A stretch of DNA of 64,000 bases from Verrucomicrobiota bacterium (lineage in GTDB: Bacteria; Verrucomicrobiota; Verrucomicrobiia; Limisphaerales; UBA11358). Location of the stretch: NCBI GenBank assembly GCA_049522015.1, contig JBEKOG010000028.1:323-64322 (forward strand). Direction: 5' to 3'. Below are positions 4,328 through 63,979 of this stretch, piece by piece. Each line of letters begins with the position of its first letter. Within the stretch, counting starts at the first letter, position 1. The position numbers and the translations under genes are program-made. Below the pieces are notes generated by a model. That model was not told the origin of the DNA, made no database searches, and saw only the letters and a program-made list of their open reading frames with translations.

Positions 4328-4918
4328 ATGAAGAAATCGGAGTCAGACAAAAAAAACTGGGAGGCCAGGGCCGCCGCGACTCAGCCGCCGCCGGCCAATG
4401 TTCCCGTCGTGGCCGAACTCACGCCGGAGCAACTCGAAGAACTAAAAACTCGCGCCGCCAAGGCGGACGAGCATTGGGACCGCCTCCTGCGCATTGCCGC
4501 CGATCTCGAAAATTTCAAAAAACGCGCCGCGCGCGAGCGCATCGAGGCTGCTCAATCTGCCAACGTCGCGCTTCTGCTAAAACTGCTGCCCGTGCTCGAC
4601 CATTTTGAAATGGCGCAGGCCACCACGCAAACCGCGGAAGCCCCGCAAAGCGGAATTGCATCCTTGCAGGCCGGCATCACCATGATTCAGCAGCAACTCA
4701 AAGGCGTTCTCGCTGAGACTGGTCTTGAAGAAATTGATGCCAATGGCAAACCGTTCGATCCGATGCTGCACGAGGCCGTTTCGCAATTGGAAACCGACGA
4801 CGCGCCCGAAGGGCAGGTCGTCCAACAAATTCGCAAAGGTTACAAATTGCGTGACCGCCTGCTGCGACCGGCGGCGGTCGTTGTCGCCAAAAAACCTTCT
4901 GCGCCCCCCGCAGCCTGA
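4328..4918 (+). CDS. grpE: Nucleotide exchange factor GrpE
   Basis: LRIAADLENFKKRAARE and the C-terminal GYKLRDRLLRPAAVVV are typical of GrpE. ATG at 4328 (MKKSESDKK) is preferred over the upstream TTG at 4247. dnaJ follows directly. Confidence 0.9.
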   Translation: MKKSESDKKNWEARAAATQPPPANVPVVAELTPEQLEELKTRAAKADEHWDRLLRIAADLENFKKRAARERIEAAQSANVALLLKLLPVLDHFEMAQATTQTAEAPQSGIASLQAGITMIQQQLKGVLAETGLEEIDANGKPFDPMLHEAVSQLETDDAPEGQVVQQIRKGYKLRDRLLRPAAVVVAKKPSAPPAA

Positions 4919-4921
4919 GCC

Positions 4922-6055
4922 ATGCCCAAGCGCGATTATTACGAAGTGCTCGGCGTCAGTCGCAACGCCGGCGATGAAGAAATCAAAAAGGCTTATCGCC
5001 GGCTGGCCGTCAAATTTCATCCGGACAAAAATTCGGGCGACAAAACCGCCGAGGAAAAATTCAAGGAAATCGGCGAGGCCTACGAGGCGTTGAGTGATCC
5101 GCAAAGGCGCGCCGCCTACGATCAATACGGCCACGCGGCATTCGATCCGCGGGCGCGGGCCGGCCGCGGATTCGGCGGCGCCGGCGGCTTTCATGATCCG
5201 TTCGAAATCTTCCGCGAAGTTTTCGGCAGCGGAAGCATCTTCGAAAGTTTTTTTGGCGGCGGCCGGGACCCGTCGCAACCGCAGCGTGGCGGCGACCTGC
5301 GTTATGATTTGGAAATCACACTGGAAGAGGCTGCGCTCGGCTGCGAGAAGGAAATTTCCGTGTCGAAACTCGACCGTTGTGATGCGTGCAATGGCTCCGG
5401 CATGGAGCACGGCTCAAAAATCCGGACGTGCTCAACCTGCGGCGGACGCGGGCAGGTGCTCACGTCCCGCGGCATCTTTAGCATCGCGCAAACATGCCCG
5501 CATTGCAAAGGCGCGGGACGCATTTTGGAAAAACCGTGCAAATCCTGCCACGGCGAGGGAAAGCGCGAACACGGTTCCAAAATCAAACTCCGCATTCCGC
5601 CGGGTGTGGACGCGGGTGCGCGCCTGCGTTCCCCCGGCAACGGCGAAGCCGGCTTTCGCGGCGGGCCGCCGGGCGATCTTTACGTCGTGTTGCATGTCAA
5701 GGCGCATGAAATATTCCAGCGCGACGGCGACGACCTGCTATGCGAAGTGCCGGTCAGTTTTGTTCAGGCGACTCTCGGCGCGGAAATTGAAGTGCCCACG
5801 CTCGATGGCCGGGCCACCATTAAGATTCCTGTCGGCACGCAACCGGGTACGACCTTTCGTATCAAAGGCAAAGGCGTGAAAAATCTGCAGGGCTATGGCC
5901 ACGGCGATTTGCACGTCCGCGTTCAGGTCGAAGTTCCGACGCGCTTGAACCACGAACAAGAAGCCAAATTGCAGGAATTCGCTGAATTGTGCGGCGAAGA
6001 CGCCAACCCCATCAGCAAAAGTTTTTTTGAAAAAGCAAAAAAATTGTTCCAATGA
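4922..6055 (+). CDS. dnaJ: Molecular chaperone DnaJ
   Basis: J domain (DYYEVLGV...HPDKN), G/F-rich linker, and four CxxCxGxG zinc-finger motifs ([32 protein letters not shown]). Confidence 0.97.
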
Positions 6056-21153: not shown

Positions 21154-21267
21154 CCTGGGAGCGCCGGCGTCCACCCCCCGCAGTGCTGCTACGGAGGACG
21201 GGTCTCGCCGGCAAATGGACAAGTCCGCCGCAGTGGTACGAGCCGGCGGGACGCCGGCGCTCCCAGG
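21154..21267. repeat. 114-nt palindromic element with perfect 19-bp terminal arms
   Basis: cctgggagcgccggcgtcc (21154-21172) is the exact reverse complement of ggacgccggcgctcccagg (21249-21267). A related 123-nt copy lies inside acnA (61431-61553). Confidence 0.85.
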
Positions 21268-21372
21268 ACACTGCGCTCCCAGCAAGAAACAAGCTGAAGC
21301 TGAAACTCCAACGCCAAACTGACGCCCCGTTTTTTATTCAACACTCAACCCTCAACTTTCAACACTCACCCC
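21241..21372 (+). repeat. Composite direct repeat, copy A (upstream of the ECF sigma gene)
   Basis: Shares agccggcgggacgccggcgctcccagga...caagctgaagctgaaactccaacgcc...ccccgttttttattcaacactcaaccctcaactttcaacactca with copy B at 23831-23937. Confidence 0.85.
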
Positions 21373-23830: not shown

Positions 23831-23937
23831 AGCCGGCGGGACGCCCGGCGCTCCCAGGAAAAATCAAGCTGAAGCTTGAACTCCAACGCCCCGTTTTTTA
23901 TTCGACACTCAACGCTCAACTCTCAACACTCAACGCC
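23831..23937 (+). repeat. Composite direct repeat, copy B (abuts the start codon of the PHP phosphatase gene)
   Basis: Same blocks as copy A at 21241-21372, with two short deletions. It ends at ...ctcaacactcaacgcc immediately before the ATG at 23938. Confidence 0.85.
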
Positions 23938-36724: not shown

Positions 36725-37216
36725 ATGAACATTACCGTCGCCAACCGTCAGCACGTGCGAAAAATCAACCTGCGGCTGCTGAAAAAAATTGCGAACGCGC
36801 TACTGGCGGAACTGGAGATTGAAAAGGCCGAAATTGGAATCTGCCTCGTCGGCGCGCCGGAAATGACGCGACTCAACGAGACTTTTCTCCGGCATGCCGG
36901 TTCAACGGACGTGATTACGTTTGATTACCGTGACAGCGTGTTGCCGGCATCTTGCCGGCAAATCAAATCAGAACTTCCGGCAGGATGCCGGAAGCACGTT
37001 CACGGCGAGATTTTCATCTGCGTGGACGAGGCGGTTTTGCAGGCGCGGAAGTTTGACACGAGCTGGCAGTCGGAAATCGTCTGCTACATCATCCACGGAG
37101 TTTTGCATTTGGTCGGCTTTGATGATTCGAGTGCGGGTGCCCGGCGCAAAATGAAACGGGAGGAAAACCGCCGGTTGCGTGAAATCACCCGCCGCTTTCC
37201 CTTGAGCAAACTTTGA
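36725..37216 (+). CDS. ybeY: rRNA maturation endoribonuclease YbeY, with an in-frame 66-nt palindromic insertion
   Basis: Zinc motif HGVLHLVGFDD. phoH-ybeY synteny. Confidence 0.92.
   Translation: MNITVANRQHVRKINLRLLKKIANALLAELEIEKAEIGICLVGAPEMTRLNETFLRHAGSTDVITFDYRDSVLPASCRQIKSELPAGCRKHVHGEIFICVDEAVLQARKFDTSWQSEIVCYIIHGVLHLVGFDDSSAGARRKMKREENRRLREITRRFPLSKL
36935..37000. repeat. 66-nt palindromic element (26+14+26), copy inside ybeY
   Basis: agcgtgttgccggcatcttgccggca / aatcaaatcagaac / ttccggcaggatgccggaagcacgtt. A second copy lies at 52123-52188 in proS. Confidence 0.85.
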
Positions 37217-51082: not shown

Positions 51083-52912
51083 TCAGCGCAAACTTGCCTG
51101 GCCTTCTTCCAGCAGTTTCACCACCGCTTCTACTGCCACATCGGCCTTGACGGGTTGCAGCGCGCCGCCGCGCGGTTTGAGTTCCACTTCGCCCTTCGCT
51201 AATGATTTTTCACCAATGCCGATGCGAATTGGAAAGCCGACCAGTTCGGAATCCTTGAATTTCACGCCGGGACGTTCGTCGCGGTCGTCCAGAATCACTT
51301 CCACGCCGCGCGCCGTGAGTTCCGCGTAAATTTTCTCCGCCAGTTTCATCACCGCGCCGTCCGGCGCGACTCCCAGCGGCGTGATGCAAACCTGATACGG
51401 CGCGACACTTAACGGCCAGATGATGCCGTCCTTGTCGTTGCACTGCTCGATGACGGCCTGCAACGTGCGGGTGACGCCGATGCCGTAGCAGCCCATGACG
51501 GCGGGTTTGCGGGTGCCAGCCTCGTCGAGGAAGGTCGCGCCGAGCTTCTCGCTGTATTTCGTGCCGAGCTTGAAAACGTGGCCGACTTCAATCGCCCGCC
51601 GGATTTTTAACGGTTTGTTGCATTTCGCGCAGGGTTCACCGGCGGTCACAGTCCGCAAATCGAACCACTGTGTTACCTTGATGTCGCGTTCGATGGAGAC
51701 GTTGCGGAAATGGAAACCGTCTTCGTTCGCGCCGGTGGTCATGCCGTTCGCGCCGTGCAGACGTTCATCGGCGAAAATCCTCGGAGCGCCGGCCTCCGGC
51801 ACGGCGCGTTGCAGCGGTTCACCTTCAAGCCGTGCCGGAGGCCGGCGCTCCAATGTGCTTGCCACCGCGCCCAAGCTTCCCGGATGCGCGCCGAGCGTGG
51901 CCACACATTCTTCCGGCGTGGCCGGACGGAACACCGTGGTGCCGATGATGCCCGCGAGCTTGGCTTCGTTCAACTGGTCGTCGCCGCGTATCAAGATGAT
52001 GACCGGTTTGCTGTCAGCCATGTAAACCAGCGTCTTGATCTGACGATTGGCCGGAACGTTGTAGGGCGCTTTGCTCAGCGCTTCGATGGTGACAACGCCG
52101 GGCGTGGCGAACTTTTCAATGGAACGTGCTGCCGGCGTCCCGCCGGCAGTTCCAGTTTGTTCTTCCGGCAAGATGCCGGAAGCACGTTGAGAAACCGCGC
52201 TTGTCGCCTTCTCGATGTTCGCGGCGTAACCGCAGGCTTCGCAATATACCACCTCGTTCTCGCCGGTTTCCGCCGGGACCATGAACTCGTGCGAAAATTT
52301 CCCGCCGATGACGCCGGTGTCGGCCTCAACCGGAAACGCCTTCAGCCCGCACCGGGCAAAGATGCGCCCATAGGCGTCGTACATTTTCTGGTAGCACGCC
52401 TGCGCCGCCTCGTCGCTCACGTCAAAACTGTAGGCGTCCTTCATGATGAACTCGCGGGCGCGCATCAGCCCGAAGCGCGGACGGATTTCGTCCCGGAACT
52501 TCACGCTGATCTGGTAAAAGTTCTTCGGCAACTGCCGGTAGGAATTGATCTCGGCGGCGGCGGTGGTGGTGATGACTTCCTCGGCCGTCGGGCTGAGAAT
52601 CCATTCGCGGTTTCCACTGTCCTTCAATTTGAACAACACGTTACCGGCGGTTTCGTAACGGCCGCTCTGCTGCCAGATTTCCGGCGGCTGAAGCGCGGGC
52701 ATGAGCAGTTCGAGCGCACCGGCGCGGTCCATTTCCTCGCGGACGATTTGCTCGACCTTGCGCAGCGCGCGCAAACCGAGCGGTAGAAAGGTATAGACGC
52801 CCCCGGCGAGCTTGCGGATGAGGCCGGCACGGAGCAGGAGTTTATGGGAAAGAATTTCCGCGTCAGCCGGAGCTTCGCGGAGTGTAGGAATAAATGCGTT
52901 GGTCCACTTCAT
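51083..52912 (-). CDS. proS: Proline--tRNA ligase (bacterial type with editing domain), carrying two in-frame palindromic insertions
   Basis: MKWTNAFIPTLREAPADAEILSHKLLLRAGLIRKL, class II motifs (FRDEIRPRFGLMRAREF, GCYGIGVTR), and a C-terminal anticodon-binding domain. Confidence 0.95.
   Translation of the reverse strand: MKWTNAFIPTLREAPADAEILSHKLLLRAGLIRKLAGGVYTFLPLGLRALRKVEQIVREEMDRAGALELLMPALQPPEIWQQSGRYETAGNVLFKLKDSGNREWILSPTAEEVITTTAAAEINSYRQLPKNFYQISVKFRDEIRPRFGLMRAREFIMKDAYSFDVSDEAAQACYQKMYDAYGRIFARCGLKAFPVEADTGVIGGKFSHEFMVPAETGENEVVYCEACGYAANIEKATSAVSQRASGILPEEQTGTAGGTPAARSIEKFATPGVVTIEALSKAPYNVPANRQIKTLVYMADSKPVIILIRGDDQLNEAKLAGIIGTTVFRPATPEECVATLGAHPGSLGAVASTLERRPPARLEGEPLQRAVPEAGAPRIFADERLHGANGMTTGANEDGFHFRNVSIERDIKVTQWFDLRTVTAGEPCAKCNKPLKIRRAIEVGHVFKLGTKYSEKLGATFLDEAGTRKPAVMGCYGIGVTRTLQAVIEQCNDKDGIIWPLSVAPYQVCITPLGVAPDGAVMKLAEKIYAELTARGVEVILDDRDERPGVKFKDSELVGFPIRIGIGEKSLAKGEVELKPRGGALQPVKADVAVEAVVKLLEEGQASLR
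51783..51851. repeat. 69-nt palindromic element (23+23+23), copy inside proS
   Basis: ggagcgccggcctccggcacggc / gcgttgcagcggttcaccttcaa / gccgtgccggaggccggcgctcc. The arms are perfect reverse complements. Confidence 0.9.
52123..52188. repeat. 66-nt palindromic element, copy inside proS
   Basis: aacgtgctgccggcgtcccgccggca / gttccagtttgttc / ttccggcaagatgccggaagcacgtt. Same family as 36935-37000. Confidence 0.85.
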
Positions 52913-53747: not shown

Positions 53748-55385
53748 TCACGGCGAGCGAAAGCGGTAGAAGCGGCTGGAATAATTCGTCCACTTGGGAT
53801 CGCTGAAATACGAAGTTCCGCCGGTGAGGGTGTTGGTTGCCACCGGTGACCATACGGGATTGGCCAGGTTTGTGCAGGCTTCCACCACGACGACCAGATT
53901 GCTGCTGCCGGCGATGTTGAATCCGAACTGATTATTTTGCACGCCGAAGCTTCCGTCGTTGGTCTGCGCGTGCGGGTTCCACAGCATGGTCGGAAGACCG
54001 TCAAAAGTCGGGCCCCAACCCGTGGTGGCCAGCAGGTAATAGACAATTCCATTGTTGTCGCCGGAGAAAACGGATGAATCATTGGTTGGTGTCGGAGCAT
54101 TCCCCTGAAAATAGACTCCCGTCAAACCGGAACAGTTTGCAAACGCAATGAACCCAATGTTGGTAACGCTGTTGGGGATCGTGACACTGGTCAGGCTGAC
54201 GCAGTAGCGGAACGCCCCGCCCCCGATGCTGATGACGCTGTTGGGGATGGTGACATTTAGCAGGTTCATGCAGTCAGCAAACGCATTGACCCCGATGTTG
54301 GTGACGCTGTTGGGGATCGCGTAGCTTCCGGTTTTGGCTTCCGGATATGCGATGAGCGTGGTCTGGTTCTGGTTGAACAAAACCCCAGCCACACTGCTAT
54401 AGGCGGGATTGTTTGAACTCACCTTGATTGCCATCAGGCTGGGACAAACATAGAATGCATTGACCCCGATGCTGGTGACGTTGGCGCCGATCATCACGTT
54501 GGTCAGGCTGGTGCAGCTAGAGAACGCCGAGAACCCGATGTTGGTGACGCTGTTGCCAATCGTGACACTGACCAGGTTGGGGCAGGCTGTGAACGCATCG
54601 GCCCCGATGCTGGTGACACTGTTGGGGACCGTGTAACTTCCCGCTTCACCCCCCGGACACTGGATCAGCGTGGTCTGACTCTTGTTGAACAAGACTCCAT
54701 CCACACTGCTGTAGGCGGGATTGTTTGAATTCACCGTGATTGCATTCAAATCAGTGCATGAAGCGAACGCGTTGCTGCCGATACTGTTGACATTGGTGCC
54801 GATTGTAACATTGGTCAGGCTGGTGCAGTTAGCAAACGCAAGGCCCCCAATGCTGGCGACGCTGTTGCCTATGGTGACGCTCGCCAGCCCACCGCAGAAA
54901 AAGAACGCATCACTTCCGATGTTGGTAACGGTGTTGGGAACCGCATAGTTTCCGGTTTCGCCCCCCGGACATTGGATGAGCGTGGTCTGGCTCTTATCAA
55001 ACAAGACCCCGGCCACACTGCCATAGGCGGGATTGTTTGCATTCACCGTGATTGCCGTCAGGTTGGGGCAATCATAGAAAACATTGACCCCCATGCTGGT
55101 GACATTGGTGCCGATCATGACGTTGGTCAAACTAGTGCAGTTATCGAACGCCGCGTCCGCGATGCTGGTGACCGTCAGGCCGTCAATATTGGTGGGGATG
55201 GTCACCGACCCGCCAGAACCGGTGTATCCCGTGATGTTGATGGTGATGCCGTCGGCATTTGTCGTGTAGCCCCAGATGCCGTAATTGTTCGTGTAAGTTT
55301 GGGCTTGCACCACGGCGGGCAGCACCAAAAGCAGCAACAGCGGCAGCAGTCTCGTGGCGCAGGAGGTTCTTAAACGCGTAGTCAT
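53748..55385 (-). CDS. Secreted BspA-type leucine-rich-repeat protein with a C-terminal beta-sandwich tail
   Basis: Signal peptide MTTRLRTSCATRLLPLLLLLVLPAVVQAQ. More than 12 repeats of IPNSVTxIGxxAFxxCxxLTxVTIGxxV. Tail ...FYRFRSP. Confidence 0.85.
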   Translation of the reverse strand: MTTRLRTSCATRLLPLLLLLVLPAVVQAQTYTNNYGIWGYTTNADGITINITGYTGSGGSVTIPTNIDGLTVTSIADAAFDNCTSLTNVMIGTNVTSMGVNVFYDCPNLTAITVNANNPAYGSVAGVLFDKSQTTLIQCPGGETGNYAVPNTVTNIGSDAFFFCGGLASVTIGNSVASIGGLAFANCTSLTNVTIGTNVNSIGSNAFASCTDLNAITVNSNNPAYSSVDGVLFNKSQTTLIQCPGGEAGSYTVPNSVTSIGADAFTACPNLVSVTIGNSVTNIGFSAFSSCTSLTNVMIGANVTSIGVNAFYVCPSLMAIKVSSNNPAYSSVAGVLFNQNQTTLIAYPEAKTGSYAIPNSVTNIGVNAFADCMNLLNVTIPNSVISIGGGAFRYCVSLTSVTIPNSVTNIGFIAFANCSGLTGVYFQGNAPTPTNDSSVFSGDNNGIVYYLLATTGWGPTFDGLPTMLWNPHAQTNDGSFGVQNNQFGFNIAGSSNLVVVVEACTNLANPVWSPVATNTLTGGTSYFSDPKWTNYSSRFYRFRSP

Positions 55386-55724
55386 CGTGTTCGTGCAGCT
55401 TGTGGTCGCAAAGAAAACCTGAGTTTTCATATTTTTGCCTGCGATTTGATTGCCACCAGCTTTGATCACAATCTGTCAGGTATCGTCTCAATCCCGACAT
55501 TGGCTACTCTTGCAAAATTGCAGGCTTGAATCAAGATTTTATGATGGAAAACATGGATTATCCGCCTGATGTGGCGTAGCGGCGCGGGATCCTAAATCCG
55601 CAGATTACGCCGATTGCACAGATTCGTTATCTGCGTCATCCGCGAAATCTGCGGATGAACTCGCCGAGGCAGTGCCTGGCACTCCCATTGTTCTGCGGCG
55701 CTCTGCCGAGACGCTGCTACGTTC

Positions 55725-58096: not shown

Positions 58097-60664
58097 ATGA
58101 GTGACACCACTTTTTCAACCAGAATTTCGGCGATGAAAATTCCGTCGCTGCCGCCCGGGGTCACGCTCACCACGCTCGAAAACGGGCTGGTCATCATCGT
58201 GCGCGAAGATCACAGCGCGCCGGTCGTGTCAGCGCAGGCGTGGTGCATGGCGGGCAGCATTCACGAAGGCAAATGGCTCGGCGCCGGCCTGTCGCACGTG
58301 CTCGAACACATGCTGTTCAAGGGCACAATCACCCGTCCCGGCAGCCGCATTGACCAGGAAGTGCAGGAAGCCGGCGGCTACATGAACGCCTACACAAGCT
58401 TCGACCGCACGGTGTATCACATTGACGTGCCGGCCACCGGCACGCGCACGGCGATTGATGTCCTGTGCGACATCATGCAGCACGCCACCCTGCCCGACGA
58501 TGAACTGGCCAGGGAACTCGACGTCATCCGCCGCGAAATGGACATGGGCCAGGACGATCCCGGGCGCCGCGCCAGCCGCCGCCTGTTTGAAACCGCCTAC
58601 ACGCGCAGTCCGTATCGCTTCACCGTCATCGGGTACCCCGACATTTTCGGCGAGTTGAAACCCGACGACATCCGCGGTTACTACGCCGAAAAATACGCGC
58701 CGAACAATGTGTTTTACGTCGTCGCCGGCGACGTCAAGAAAGACGAAGTCATCGCGCAAATCCGCACCGCCTACGAAAAAACCAAAGCCCGGGCGCTCCC
58801 ATCAGTCGTGTTGCCAGAAGAACCGAAACAGACCGCGGCGCGTGAAATCGTCGAGGAAGCGCCCATTGAACTTGGTCATTTTCATTTTGCCTGGCACATT
58901 CCCGAAGTGCGGCATCCCGACATGCCGGCGCTCGACGTGCTCGCCGTTTTGCTGGGGTGCGGCCGCAGTTCGCGCCTCTACCAGCAGGTCCGCGAGAAGA
59001 AGGGCGTTGTGCACCACGTTGACGCGTGGACTTACAGCCCCGGCAATCCGGGTTTGTTCGGCATGAGCGCCATCGTGGACGCGGACAAATTTACCGTTGC
59101 GCGTGATGCGATGCTGGCCGAGGTTGAAAAAATGAAGACGTCGCCGGTTACCGCCGGTGAACTTGGCAAAGCGGTGAAACAATTCATTGCCGCCACGCTT
59201 GCCGCGCGCAAGACGATGGAAGGCCAGGCGCAAAACCTCGGCGGAAACTGGCTGGCGGCAAATGATTTGAATTTTTCCGAACGTTACCTCGCCGCCGTCA
59301 AGCGCGTCAGGCCCGATGACATCCTGCGCGTCGCGCGTGAATATCTCACGGCGGAAAACCGCACCCTTTACACGTTGTTGCCCAATGGCACCGCGCCCAA
59401 AGTGTCCGTGGCCGTCGAAGAAAAAACCGAGCACGCGATCCAGAAATTTGAATTGCCGAACGGCCTCCGCCTGCTCGTGAAGGAAGATCATCGCCTGCCC
59501 TTTGTTGAATATCGCGCCATGTTCCAGGGCGGCGTGCTCGCCGAAACCAGGGAAAACAACGGCATCAGCCAGTTGACCAGCCGGATGCTGCTCAAAGGCA
59601 CGTCGCAGCGCAGCGCCCGGGACATTGCGACAGAAATCGAGACCGTCGGCGGCAGCATAGACAGCTACGGCGGCAATAACAGCTTCGGCGTTAATCTGGA
59701 AACCATGAGCAGCGATTTTGCGACCGGCCTCGATTTGCTCGCCGACGTTTTGCTGAACCCGGTTTTTCCCGCCGACGCGCTCGAACGCGAGCGCGAGGTG
59801 CAGATTGCCGACATTTGTGCAGACAAGGACAATCTGCTTAAAAGCGCCAGCCTGGCCATGCGACGCACGCTTTTTGGCAACATCGGCTACGGCTTGGATT
59901 CAACCGGCATGGAAGAAACCGTTGCCAAACTTAAGGTTGCCAGTTTGAAATCGTTTCACAAAAAGCTGGCCACGCCGAACAATTGCGTTCTCGCCATTTA
60001 CGGCGACGTGGATGCGGCGGAGGTTAAATCCGCCGTCGAAACAGTTTTTGGCGGATGGAAATCCAGCGGAAAATTTGAACATCCAACATCCAACATCCAA
60101 CATCCAACATCCAATCGAGTAACGGAGATCCGCGACAAAAAGCAGGCGGTGGTCGTCATCGGTTTTCCCGGCACGACGATGCACGACGAAGACCGTTACG
60201 CGCTCGAGATGATTCAAGAATCGTGCAGCGACCTCGGTTCGCGGCTGTTTCTGCGGATTCGCGAGCAACTCGGCCTCGCCTACTACGTCGGCGCGCAACA
60301 TTTCGCCGGACTGGTGCCCGGCTACTTCGCCTTTTATGCCGGCACCGAGCCGTCGAAGGCCGCGCAGGTCGAACAGGAAATTCTCAAGGAAGCCGGACTC
60401 CTGCGCACCGAAGGCCTGACCGCCGAGGAACTCAAACGCGCCAAGGCCAAACTCATCGGCCAGAAAAAGATCGCGCGGCAGGACCTGGGTCATCTGGCCT
60501 CCACGACCACGCTCGATGAACTTTACGGCCTCGGCTACCGGCGTGCGGAACTCGACGACGCGAAATACGAGGCCGTGACGCTGGAACAAATCAAAGCCGC
60601 CGCGCAAAAATATCTCAAGCCGGATAAACTGGTCGTCGCGGTGGTGAAGCCGGAGAAAATTTAA
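58097..60664 (+). CDS. Two-module M16 (pitrilysin/insulinase) family zinc peptidase
   Basis: HxxEH motif (HVLEHMLFKGT) in the first module. The second, inactive-type M16 module starts around residue 440. Confidence 0.92.
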   Translation: MSDTTFSTRISAMKIPSLPPGVTLTTLENGLVIIVREDHSAPVVSAQAWCMAGSIHEGKWLGAGLSHVLEHMLFKGTITRPGSRIDQEVQEAGGYMNAYTSFDRTVYHIDVPATGTRTAIDVLCDIMQHATLPDDELARELDVIRREMDMGQDDPGRRASRRLFETAYTRSPYRFTVIGYPDIFGELKPDDIRGYYAEKYAPNNVFYVVAGDVKKDEVIAQIRTAYEKTKARALPSVVLPEEPKQTAAREIVEEAPIELGHFHFAWHIPEVRHPDMPALDVLAVLLGCGRSSRLYQQVREKKGVVHHVDAWTYSPGNPGLFGMSAIVDADKFTVARDAMLAEVEKMKTSPVTAGELGKAVKQFIAATLAARKTMEGQAQNLGGNWLAANDLNFSERYLAAVKRVRPDDILRVAREYLTAENRTLYTLLPNGTAPKVSVAVEEKTEHAIQKFELPNGLRLLVKEDHRLPFVEYRAMFQGGVLAETRENNGISQLTSRMLLKGTSQRSARDIATEIETVGGSIDSYGGNNSFGVNLETMSSDFATGLDLLADVLLNPVFPADALEREREVQIADICADKDNLLKSASLAMRRTLFGNIGYGLDSTGMEETVAKLKVASLKSFHKKLATPNNCVLAIYGDVDAAEVKSAVETVFGGWKSSGKFEHPTSNIQHPTSNRVTEIRDKKQAVVVIGFPGTTMHDEDRYALEMIQESCSDLGSRLFLRIREQLGLAYYVGAQHFAGLVPGYFAFYAGTEPSKAAQVEQEILKEAGLLRTEGLTAEELKRAKAKLIGQKKIARQDLGHLASTTTLDELYGLGYRRAELDDAKYEAVTLEQIKAAAQKYLKPDKLVVAVVKPEKI
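60078..60114 (+). repeat. Heptanucleotide tandem repeat (ACATCCA)x5 inside the M16 peptidase gene
   Basis: gaacatccaacatccaacatccaacatccaacatccaat, translated as EHPTSNIQHPTSN. Confidence 0.9.
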
Positions 60665-60666
60665 TT

Positions 60667-60735
60667 GGAGCGCCGGCCTCCGGCACGGCTCTTCCTGTTG
60701 TTTCATTGTCGCGCTGTGCTGGAAGCCGGCGTTCC
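60667..60735. repeat. 69-nt palindromic element, intergenic copy 1
   Basis: ggagcgccggcctccggcacggc / 23-nt loop / gctgtgctggaagccggcgttcc. The arm differences are transitions. Confidence 0.85.
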
Positions 60736-60909
60736 AGCTGGAATCAAATAACCGCTGGAACTCATCTCGAAATCTTGCGCTGCTGAATGACCACACCTCC
60801 GATATTCGGCTGAGTTTTGCTTTGATCGGGTTGTTTTCAATATAACGAACCGCCTTCCTTTCCTGCTCTTCGTCCCGCATGAATGTATCCCAGTATTCCC
60901 GCTGCCATT
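60736..60909 (-). pseudogene. C-terminal remnant of an IS200/IS605-type Y1 transposase (RAYT-like)
   Basis: The minus-strand frame reads LQWQREYWDTFMRDEEQERKAVRYIENNPIKAKLSRISEVWSFSSARF. This matches the conserved C-terminal pattern of REP-associated tyrosine transposases (WQ.RYYDH.IRDE...YI..NPVKAGL....WPWSS). No N-terminal HUH/Tyr core is present, and an in-frame stop lies just upstream inside the adjacent repeat. Confidence 0.65.
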
Positions 60910-60976
60910 GGAGCGCCGGCCTCCGGCACGGCTTGTTTCAGCTATAACATCGGGCCGTGCCGGAGGCCGGCGTTCC
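60910..60976. repeat. 67-nt copy of the 69-nt palindromic family, intergenic copy 2
   Basis: ggagcgccggcctccggcacggc / ttgtttcagctataacatcgg / gccgtgccggaggccggcgttcc. Confidence 0.85.
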
Positions 60977-60979
60977 GAT

Positions 60980-63979
60980 TTATGCCTTTGCCACCAACTG
61001 CCGCAGGACGTACGGCAAAATGCCGCCGTGCTGGTAGTAATCGATTTCAATCGGCGTATCAATCCGGCAACGCACTGGCACATCTTCCACGCCGCCGTCT
61101 TTGCGCGTGATCTTCAGCGTGAGGTCCTGCTGCGGCTTGAGGTTCGCATCGAGGCCGACGATGTCGTAGGTCTCCGTGCCATCGAGCTGGAGGCTCTGCG
61201 CCGTCGTGCCTTCCTTGAATTGCAGCGGCAGCACGCCCATGCCGACAAGGTTGCTGCGGTGGATGCGTTCGAAGCTCTGCGCCACGACGGCTTTCACGCC
61301 GAGCAGGTTCGTGCCTTTCGCGGCCCAGTCACGGGATGACCCGGTGCCGTATTCCTGGCCGGCAATCACCACCAGCGGAACGCCGGCCGCCCGATATTTC
61401 ATGGCGGCGTCGTAAATGGACATTTGTTCTCCTGGGAGCGCGGGCGTCCCGCCTGCGGCAGTCGGCGTCGCGCCGGCTGCACTCGTTGAACTGACTGACG
61501 AAGCGGAAGGCGAGACGCCTTCCGCAGCACGCGAGGACGCGTGCGCTCCCAAAAACCTGGTCACTCCGCCTTCGACACCAGGCACCATGAGATTTTTGAT
61601 GCGGACGTTGGCGAACGTGCCGCGGGTCATCACGCGGTCATTGCCTCGCCGCGAGCCGTAGCTGTTGAAGTCGGCGGGCTGAACGCCGTTCTCAATGAGA
61701 TATTTTCCGGCCAGCGAGGTCTTCTGGATGGATCCGGCGGGTGAAATGTGGTCGGTCGTCACGCTGTCACCAAAAATGGCCAGCGTCCGCGCACCCTTGA
61801 TTTCGGCGATGCCGCCGGGTTGCATGGAGAAGTTCGCGAAGAACGGCGGTTCCTGTATGTAAGTGGACCTGCGTTCCCATACGAAAACATTGCCGGTGAA
61901 CGAGGGGATTTCGTTCCACTTGGGATTCTGCGCCGCAAAATCCTTGAACAGCCTGCGATAAACTTCCGGCTGCAACGCGGTTTGCATGAGGTCGCGGATT
62001 TCCTGCAGGCTGGGCCAGAGTTCGCGCAAATAAACCGGCCGGCCATGCTTGCCCATGCCAATCGGATCGCGGCTGAGGTCAATGTCCACGCGGCCCGCGA
62101 GCGCGAAGGCGACGACGAGTGGTGGCGACATGAGGAAGTTCGCCTTGATGCTCTGATGCACGCGCGCCTCGAAGTTGCGGTTGCCCGAAAGGACGGAGGC
62201 CGCGACCAGGTCGTATTTGCTGATCGCGTCTTCGACCGTGGCCGGCAGGGGGCCGGAGTTGCCGATGCATGTCGTGCAGCCGTAACCCACGAGGTTGAAG
62301 CCAAGCTGGTCGAGATACAATTGCAGGCCGGTCCGGTCCAGGTAATCGCTCACCACGCGCGAGCCGGGCGCGAGCGACGTCTTGACGACGGGATTCACGC
62401 TGAGTCCGTGTTCCACGGCCTTCTTCGCCAGCAAACCGGCGGCGAGCATGACGCTGGGATTCGATGTGTTCGTGCAACTGGTGATGGCCGCGATGAGCAC
62501 GCTGCCGTGGCGAATTTCGGACTGCACCCCGCGAAACGTCGTGGGAGGCACCTGCTCCGAGGTGTGGGGCGCGGGGTGCTGGTCGCGCATCTCGGATTCG
62601 CTGGGTTCCACGCCCAGCTTGCGATGGCCATAGCTGTGATTGATGGGCGGATGGGCCTCGCGCGCCGTGTTGACCCGCGCGGTTACATACAACTCCTCGT
62701 AACGCTTGCCGAAGCCATTGTCCATGACCGAACGCGTCATCGCCTTCATGAACGCGTCTCTCAACTTCGGCAGTTCGATGCGGTCCTGCGGGCGCTTTGG
62801 GCCGGCCACACTCGGCACCACCGTGCCAAGGTTGAGTTCCAATTCCTGCGAGTAGGCGATGTCGCCCTTCTTCGGAATGCCGAACAAGCCCTGCGCGCGG
62901 TAATAATTTTCGTAGGTCAGGCAAAGCTCCTCGCTGCGGCCCGTGGCGCGGAGATAATTCACGCACTCGGCATCAATCGGGAAGAAACCCATCGTCGCGC
63001 CGTATTCGGGCGCCATGTTCGCTATCGTCGCGCGGTCCACGACCGGCAACGCCGCCGCGCCGGGGCCGAAAAATTCGACGAACTTGCCGACGACCTTTGC
63101 CTTGCGGAGCATTTCCGTGACGGTGAGCGCGAGGTCGGTGGCGGTGACGCCGTCGCGCAACACGCCGGTGAGATGCACGCCGACGACGTCCGGCGTGAGG
63201 AAATAAACCGGCTGGCCCAGCATGCCGGCTTCAGCCTCGATACCGCCGACACCCCACCCCACGATGCCGAGACCATTGATCATTGTCGTGTGCGAATCCG
63301 TGCCGACCAGCGTGTCGGGATAGTAAAGTGGAACGCCGGCCTCCGGCACGGCGCGTTGAGCGTCTTCACCATCTTGCCGTGCTGGAAGCCGGCGCTCCGA
63401 AAGCACGCCTTGGGCAAGATATTCCAGGTTGACCTGATGGACGATGCCGATGCCGGGCGGCACGACCTTGAACGTGTCGAACGCCTGCATGCCCCACTTG
63501 AGAAACTGGTAGCGCTCGCGATTGCGCCGGAATTCCATCTCCAGATTTTTCTGCAACGCATCCGCGCTGCCGGCAAAATCCACCTGCACCGAATGGTCCA
63601 CCACGAGGTCCACCGGCACGAGCGGTTCGATGATTTTCGGATTTTTGCCCAGTCGCTGAACCGCGGAGCGCATCGCCGCCAGGTCCACCAGCAGCGGCAC
63701 GCCGGTAAAATCCTGCAATACGATGCGCGCAACGATAAATGGAATTTCCTCCGTGCGGGTTTCGGTTGGCTTCCAATTCGCCAGCGCGCGCACGCTTTGT
63801 TCGCCGACCTTTTTGCCGTCGCAATTGCGGAGCACGGATTCGAGCACGAGCCGGATGGAGACGGGCAATTGGGAAACCGGCCCGACCCCGGCCTCTTCCA
63901 GCGCCGGCAGGGAATAAAACGATCCCTGCCGGCCGTCGCCGAGGTCAAATTTCTGGAGCGTGTTGAATAAGTTGTGCAT
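60980..63979 (-). CDS. acnA: Aconitate hydratase A (AcnA/IRP type), carrying two in-frame palindromic insertions
   Basis: 999 aa. [31 protein letters not shown] (Fe-S ligands), and the C-terminal swivel domain [14 protein letters not shown]...[10 protein letters not shown]. Confidence 0.96.
61431..61553. repeat. 123-nt palindromic element inside acnA (same family as 21154-21267)
   Basis: cctgggagcgcgggcgtcc (61431-61449) versus ggacgcgtgcgctcccaaa (61535-61553). Encodes [41 protein letters not shown] between VTRFL and QMSIYDAAM. Confidence 0.8.
63330..63398. repeat. 69-nt palindromic element, copy inside acnA
   Basis: ggaacgccggcctccggcacggc / gcgttgagcgtcttcaccatctt / gccgtgctggaagccggcgctcc. 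Encodes [23 protein letters not shown]. Confidence 0.9.

Follow-up and report, generated by a model that had tools for sequence, protein, structure and literature searches.

The segment between the M16 peptidase gene and acnA in the 64,000-nt stretch of Verrucomicrobiota DNA analyzed here (the window) is the pseudogene, of a kind already known, that a recent deletion has left of a domesticated REP-associated tyrosine transposase (RAYT) gene. Probably it is what remains of the RAYT of a resident REPtron that lost ~850 bp by REPIN-REPIN recombination or slippage, with the palindrome found on both sides of it being the cognate REPIN. The relevant features of the window are listed below.

51783-51851, no strand assigned: REPIN in frame in proS, with perfect arms (23/23); the proS ORF is 51083-52912, minus strand
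58097-60664, plus strand: M16 family peptidase gene, the downstream convergent neighbor, conserved in closer relatives
60667-60735, no strand assigned: REPIN copy 1, the 3' flanking REPIN, 69 nt, beginning 3 nt past the M16 peptidase stop
60749-60907, minus strand: RAYT C-terminal cassette remnant, WQREYWDTFMRDEEQERKAVRYIENNPIKAKLSRISEVWSFSSARFRDEFQRL, identified with NF047646, by tblastn and by nucleotide identity to the L091 copy
60905-60937, minus strand: putative crossover zone, the RAYT-proximal REPIN arm plus CCAATGG, common to the 5' REPIN and the relatives' middle REPIN
60910-60976, no strand assigned: REPIN copy 2, 67 nt, -35.8 kcal/mol, z -10.3
60980-63979, minus strand: acnA, the upstream neighbor of the RAYT locus, with synteny in ~48 loci
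63330-63398, no strand assigned: REPIN in frame in acnA, a 23-aa block recognized by orthologue comparison

The original prediction had placed two 69-nt copies of a palindrome around a transposase remnant and had stated that the same palindrome interrupts proS and acnA. Both sets of coordinates were correct, except that copy 2 is 67 nt long, and the interruptions were borne out: the alignment of ProRS with PDB 8w8j shows ~23 extra residues at aa 351-389, the position of the REPIN, and the 23-aa block (ERRLPARQ...PEAGVP) is absent from some AcnA orthologues. The 64-kb window contains four full copies, all listed above, and related GGAGCGC units (9 matches vs 1.6 expected), while the 23-nt arm, GGAGCGCCGGCCTCCGGCACGGC, has 7 matches at ≤3 mismatches against an expectation of 0 from 100 shuffles. 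The arms are 23 nt and the spacers 21-23 nt long, and as single-stranded DNA the palindromes have folding energies of -22 to -38 kcal/mol (z -4 to -10). The Rfam scan of 60300-61300 found no known RNA family, returning far-sub-threshold generic hairpins only (mir-3130, isrG). Two of the four copies lie in frame within proS and acnA, away from the extragenic location expected of REPs and REPINs; intragenic exceptions to this location are already documented (PMC3733652).

The palindrome had also been thought to lack a 5' tag, since it has no GTAG, and perhaps to represent a distinct recognition type. The palindrome is not tagless, as each arm begins with an unpaired 4-nt tag, GGAG or GGAA, and continues into an 8-bp bulged hairpin of its own. 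Two such arms in inverted orientation make up the 67-71-nt element, which is thus classed as a REP doublet (REPIN) whose tag is a variant one; the family label for the REPINs of the locus is GGAGCGCCGG. The REP arm, 23-24 nt long, follows the layout of GTAG-tagged REPs with one base of the tag changed. Compensatory change accounts for REPINs whose arms are mismatched with one another but individually self-complementary: those of copy 1 differ at two positions and each keeps its own hairpin (CTTCCAG vs CCTCCGG), both variants folding as ....((((((((...))).))))). The fetched loci, which were chosen around RAYTs, contained 153 REPINs. An uninterrupted within-arm stem of ≥6 bp was present in 63% of 219 distinct arms vs 3.4% of shuffles, with 44 distinct stems. 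A model of fixed-register arm pairing was discarded since it fitted only about a quarter of the arms, whose loop lengths vary, and was replaced by this register-free stem search with shuffles. Position 4 of the tag was G in 147 cases and A in 56, but the regex used for collection fixed GGA at positions 1-3 and allowed only these two bases at position 4, so that the survey cannot show invariance of the tag.

Other repeats were observed in the window. Members of a palindrome family of 62-68 nt (CGTGCTGCCGGCGTCCCGCCGGCAG...) are found at 36934-37001 and, within proS, at 52122-52189, where ProRS has ~13 extra residues relative to 8w8j. A 113-nt palindrome with CCTGGGAGCGCCGGCGTCC arms occupies 21156-21268 and has a half copy at 23833-23858 (region 23833-23890), and each of these is then followed by the same 43-nt direct repeat (GCGCTCCCAG.AA.A.CAAGCTGAAGCT.GAAACTCCAACGCC), which looks like a composite arrangement at two intergenic sites. 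The acnA gene has a second in-frame insertion of ~40 aa at 61432-61553, a longer palindrome with the ends GGGAGCGCGGGCGTCC and GACGCGTGCGCTCCC, and the length of this site varies strongly among orthologues, the shortest having ~4 residues. The 69-nt (23-codon) repeats nested in 312-nt super-repeats at 54123-55172 (ORF 53748-55469, minus strand) belong to an unrelated repeat protein.

The minus-strand peptide between the two copies, WQREYWDTFMRDEEQERKAVRYIENNPIKAKLSRISEVWSFSSARF, reads as originally quoted, and its assignment to the conserved C-terminal part of RAYTs is supported by a match to NCBIfam NF047646 (REP_Tyr_transpos; E=1.8e-9) over profile positions 105-146 of 146, the last 42. The score of 37.6 bits falls short of the cut-off of 80 for full-length proteins, which is no surprise in a fragment, and the Pfam scan of the remnant gave no Y1_Tnp match, only a sub-threshold Hox9_act, because the fragment is too short. 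By tblastn, the remnant matches the C-terminus of the L001 RAYT at 83%. The homology had been described as starting exactly at the edge of copy 2 and running into copy 1; it starts at a W 2-3 nt from that edge and ends at ~60749, 14 nt short of copy 1, and what continues through copy 1 is the reading frame. This frame has neither a dedicated start nor a stop of its own and runs 326 codons antisense into the M16 gene, reaching 59900. The catalytic N-terminal part had been called missing, which holds for the HUH metal-binding motif: the motif is absent from the window, and tblastn found no N-terminal RAYT match anywhere in the 64 kb. The catalytic Tyr, however, sits inside the remnant. The motif RYIENNP has its Y opposite Y115 of 4er8 and its second N opposite N119, and in E. 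coli TnpA-REP Y115 is the catalytic residue, together with N119 (PMC3479197), so that the remnant keeps the nucleophile helix without the HUH motif. Since the HUH motif is absent, the window copy is a pseudogene fragment rather than a member enzyme, and the remnant cannot be a transposase. An open frame and a low pairwise dN/dS, both of which the remnant shows, do not prove decay and are to be expected after a very recent deletion; with so little time elapsed since that event, and with dS saturated in several pairs, the dN/dS of the remnant carries no information.

In a protein search, the remnant matched short ORFs only, many of them with a translated palindrome right before WQREYWDTF, and the contigs of these short homologues turned out to be the acnA/M16-peptidase locus of relatives. 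A conserved mini-gene and a mobile palindrome-fragment-palindrome unit were considered and rejected, as the short homologues proved either to lie at orthologous acnA/M16 loci or to be second cassettes that adjoin intact RAYTs.

At the same locus in many related genomes the gene is intact. From the genome-collection scan (80 loci; best match 87%), we found ~48 intact RAYTs directly downstream of acnA, in Verrucomicrobiota/Limisphaerales-type MAGs with AcnA identities of 67-92%. The Y1_Tnp match anticipated for the remnant is found in the intact orthologue (27.5 bits; gathering score 23), which scores 72 bits with NF047646 (below 80) and aligns, HUH motif and catalytic Tyr included, with E. coli TnpA-REP (PDB 4er8; E=2.3e-8); the HUH motif appears as MPNHVH in the orthologues L001, L087 and others. 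The AF2 model of P0035, the nearest intact protein (from L087), has a confident core, and its best Foldseek match is 4er8_A (E=3.8e-6). Among the intact loci, the C-terminal dN/dS has a median of 0.13. Judged from the conserved synteny, the RAYT appears to be vertically inherited; the phylogeny of the C-terminal cassette is incongruent with the acnA tree. The acnA-linked RAYTs are usually flanked by GGAGCGCC...GGCGCTCC palindromes, and with the strict regex GGA[AG]CGCC...GGCG[CT]TCC, flanking REPINs were detected 5' and/or 3' in 36 of the 48. The proposal that the transposase is flanked by its own palindromes thus stands well beyond the window, the same palindrome superfamily being involved in these orthologues. 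Taken together, these sequence comparisons support the identification of the fragment as a RAYT C-terminus and a link between the enzyme and the palindrome. By analogy with E. coli TnpA-REP and the Pseudomonas REPIN-RAYT systems, the intact enzyme would bind and cleave the REPIN as single-stranded DNA, and it may mobilize the palindrome and have had a role in the in-frame insertions in proS and acnA.

The scan also yielded loci outside this common pattern. A second RAYT lineage, ~53% identical and not linked to acnA (L064, L067, L075, L059, L065, L037 and L048; ~4380-5290 each), occurs in the same MAGs as L014 and L020, is flanked by different REPs (GGAGCGCGGAGCATTGCTCCGCG) and carries an in-frame REP doublet at another site (GEWEHLLAVSTRSDAPRSGARSIASREQR); in related MAGs the second lineage has its own GGAGCGCGG REPs. 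L023 contains at 72-406 a RAYT C-terminus and, after it on the same strand, a fragment matching the final 32 AcnA residues, an odd rearrangement that reverses the order seen elsewhere. The verrucomicrobial acnA-RAYT contigs L011, L021, L028, L031, L033, L037, L044, L046, L050, L061, L078 and L080 are labelled Hyphomicrobium, Bifidobacterium/Bifidobacteriaceae or Akkermansia, which probably reflects mis-binning or mislabelling.

The extent of the deletion is seen from L087, the nearest relative with long context (acnA DNA 97.4% and M16 95.5% identical). In L087 and L091, acnA is followed by the 5' REPIN, an intact RAYT with an in-frame REPIN before WQREYWDTF, the first C-terminus, a REPIN, a duplicated C-terminus, the 3' REPIN and the M16 peptidase gene. 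In blastn, L087 2031-5126 corresponds to window 64000-60905 and L087 5903-8124 to window 60976-58757, leaving the window without ~850 nt. The missing segment extends from the right arm of the 5' REPIN to that of the middle REPIN, and the remnant is therefore the duplicated C-terminal cassette. The alternative that it is the gene's own C-terminus was rejected on comparison with L087 and L091, the remnant being identical at 171/171 nt to the second C-terminal copy of L091 and not to the first.

The flanks of copy 2 locate the junction. Copy 2, which adjoins the C-terminal cassette there, is the orthologue of the relatives' 5' flanking REPIN (3' of the acnA stop); it differs from the L087 5' REPIN at one base and has the same loop, CCGATGTTATAGCTGAAACAA. 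Its left flank is that of the acnA stop and its right flank that of the internal/middle REPIN, the RAYT-side boundary, CCAATGG followed by CAGCG, being that of the REPIN preceding the C-terminal cassette. The window junction reads ...GGCGCTCCAATGG followed by CAGCG. The homology begins at the palindrome edge because a REPIN-REPIN deletion fused the 5' REPIN to the cassette, and copy 2 is not simply a flanking REP. The loop of the window's 3' REPIN (copy 1) is that of the L091 middle REPIN, a match which suggests that REPINs may exchange sequence with each other; deriving the window from an ancestor like L091 takes one such additional exchange or more. L002-L006/L016 and L018 have likewise lost the N-terminal part, at junctions with different offsets and involving different REPIN subfamilies, and the deletion-bearing loci (the window; L002/L003/L016; L018) are interspersed with intact ones on the AcnA NJ tree. 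This interspersion, together with the differing subfamilies and offsets, points to at least three independent deletions.

We envisage the following course of events. The REPtron of this lineage would consist of one single-copy RAYT and its cognate REPINs. In intact relatives the locus contains, after the acnA stop, the 5' REPIN, a 44-nt leader, the HUH domain, the in-frame REPIN and the strand and Tyr helix, then in some genomes a tandem unit of REPIN and C-terminus, and finally the 3' REPIN and the M16 peptidase gene. The simplest derivation of the window starts from two directly repeated REPINs, the 5' REPIN and the one in front of the second cassette, whose right arms are identical over ~27 nt (...CCGTGCCGGAGGCCGGCGCTCCAATGG). 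Recombination between these arms, or replication slippage, would have excised the HUH domain and the first C-terminus together with the leader and the internal REPIN.

The same junction could in principle be produced by the assembly, through a jump between the near-identical right arms of two REPINs, in which case an intact RAYT would remain in the genome and the 5' REPIN would run into GTTGGCTTCC..., with GTTGGCTTCCTTGACC in place of the junction. The crossover does fall inside a ~27-nt repeat, the second cassette of L091 is 100% identical to the remnant while its upstream structure is complete, and two scans of the metagenome collection yielded the window junction on no independent contig. 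(L092, which came from these junction scans, was dismissed as an unrelated intact RAYT.) We nevertheless consider an artefact quite improbable. Deletions of the same N-terminal type are found in five independent JGI assemblies (L002-L006) and in the MAGs L016 and L018, which shows that alleles like this occur; most assemblers finish with k-mers longer than a 27-nt repeat; and the window is set apart from L091 as a distinct lineage by its 3' REPIN loop and several M16 substitutions.

A genuine deletion could still have left something that is maintained, since the C-terminal cassette might serve as a reservoir for swapping the Tyr helix or as a small protein modulating a RAYT elsewhere. Tandem duplications of REPIN and C-terminus span L001, L015 and L087-L091, with the extra cassettes in open frame; the KLSRISEVW-type cassette, the type of the window, is the working C-terminus of the distant L007 and L009, in a pattern incongruent with the acnA tree; and dN/dS is ~0.1. 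Against this, the frame in the window has no dedicated start or stop, the duplicates of L001 are 98% identical, which is consistent with recent unequal crossing-over, and a low pairwise dN/dS is expected if the cassettes spent most of their history inside working genes. A maintained module is, in our judgment, quite improbable, and a dead fragment left by REPIN-REPIN deletion is the reading we retain; the tandem duplications are the reciprocal product expected from unequal exchange. The tandem units lie at 5655-6210 in L001, 5658-6215 in L087 and 5001-5421 in L015, with another in L091. In L087 the two cassette copies are identical over the first ~80 nt and divergent beyond.

REPINs are found not only beside the RAYT genes but also inside them. 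In L001, the layout is REPIN, HUH N-terminus, in-frame REPIN (AERRLPAWRDGKVNHTVPCRRPAFQ), C-terminus, REPIN, second C-terminus, REPIN, and the RAYT is intact. With the strict regex, 29 of the ~48 acnA-linked intact RAYTs have a REPIN inside the ORF, and among the 120 best full-length homologues the REPIN-encoded insert is present in 97 of the ~109 that could be scored (~90%), a few homologues having what look like collapsed inserts (AERRRPALQ; ALALQSF). Loci that lack the internal REPIN show the linker ...ANRILGRSGSF directly followed by WQREYWDTF, which we call ancestral. In the AF2 model of P0035, the insert (residues 167-185) is modelled at low confidence as a loop that joins a helix to the WQREYWDTF strand, and on this basis it appears to be tolerated rather than inactivating. 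Internal REPINs differ from the 5' REPIN of their own genome by 2.4 mismatches per 24 nt and from those of other genomes by 6.0 (0/10000 permutations). The insertion site in acnA behaves similarly, different genomes holding there the subfamily that flanks their own RAYT, with GGAGCGCGG-type or true GTAG-type palindromes at this site in other genomes. This co-variation of internal, flanking and acnA-site REPINs is the strongest computational support for a cognate relation between RAYT and REPIN. Within the literature searched, neither a REPIN inside a RAYT ORF nor this REPIN family in Limisphaerales had been described, and lineage-wide in-frame REPINs in RAYT genes that evolve in concert with the flanking REPINs appear to be new.

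The acnA site itself, which follows GVLS (63330-63398 in the window; also L020, L010, L055, L013, L019, L060 and L053), is an insertion hot spot occupied by different palindrome families depending on the genome. L020, L010 and L055 have a true GTAG-tagged palindrome there (GTAGCGCAGGCGTCTCGCCTGC...), and L002 and L003 differ at this site in spite of their identical RAYT remnant.

The position of the palindromes also suggests a function for the host, as mRNA 3' stabilizers or terminators of the convergent acnA and M16 genes, with the adjacency of the transposase being incidental. Both copies begin 3 nt past the stops of these genes, and effects of REPs on mRNA stability and translation are established (PMC3733652). 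However, the element also lies in frame within proS, acnA and the RAYT ORF, and it flanks the RAYT across the clade and switches subfamily with it, an association that a host role, although there may be one, would not explain; we regard regulatory hairpins as a very improbable account of these elements, compared with cognate REPINs of the RAYT. It is conceivable that the internal REPIN is a functional self-target, either a feedback brake on expression, acting in the gene or mRNA, or a switch that, by REPIN-REPIN deletion or duplication, inactivates the RAYT or swaps its Tyr-helix cassette. We think this unlikely; if it were true, the window would represent one 'off' outcome.

With the RAYT of this locus dead, proS and acnA probably carry fossil in-frame copies, unless the genome has a further RAYT, and the REPINs of the window are presumably orphaned. 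For the window, the significance is modest: the palindrome is a REPIN, its probable enzyme is named, and the copy of that enzyme at the locus is dead. Beyond it, dozens of MAGs in which flanking, internal and intragenic-host REPINs switch subfamily together provide a natural covariation data set for how RAYTs read hairpin and tag (GGAG vs GTAG), and the locus clearly exemplifies REPINs that repeatedly bring about the loss or doubling of parts of the transposase gene to which they belong. Both the covariation set and the recurrent deletions bear on the question of the persistence and restraint of REPIN-RAYT systems.

We compared the system with those described in other bacteria. The E. coli K-12 REPtron (TnpA-REP/RAYT, 4ER8) shares the Y1 HUH fold with the HUH motif and Tyr aligned, a gene flanked by REPs, and REPs built of a 5' tetranucleotide tag and an imperfect bulged hairpin. 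It differs in its tag, GTAG instead of the GGAG/GGAA found here, and in the size of the protein, 165 aa instead of 221-256 aa, the N-terminus being ~100 aa longer here; unlike in E. coli, the REPs here occur as 67-71-nt doublets and REPINs are also inside the ORF. Loss of the REPtron by deletion has been described in E. coli strains (PMC3733652). The REPIN-RAYT systems of Pseudomonas and Enterobacteria (Bertels and Rainey; Group 2/3) have a single-copy RAYT at a fixed locus flanked by REP doublets, an arrangement that the present system appears to share, whereas the present one is from Verrucomicrobiota and shows many intragenic in-frame copies, a REPIN in the RAYT coding sequence and turnover of subfamilies at orthologous sites. 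In PMC3733652 (Di Nocera et al. 2013), the verrucomicrobium Opitutus terrae is described as REP-rich, with GTAG REP monomers and dimers in housekeeping ORFs, and RAYT-like genes with non-GTAG inverted repeats are described as TIRYTs/TIRtrons. That paper describes no REP in a RAYT ORF and no GGAGCGCC family, and the flanking repeats here are not plain TIRs but true doublets of tagged hairpins. The palindromic elements of Rickettsia (cited in PMC3733652) also lie in frame in essential genes, where they are tolerated as an extra surface peptide; no associated transposase is known for them, whereas a cognate RAYT is linked here. Loss of the RAYT is known and is expected to leave decaying REPINs behind (bioRxiv 10.1101/2021.07.10.451892; PMC5581495). 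A parallel to this outcome is Neisseria gonorrhoeae, in which the RAYT is inactivated while REPINs remain as a decaying population (bioRxiv 10.1101/2021.07.10.451892), through a frameshift there and through a REPIN-mediated deletion of the HUH domain here.
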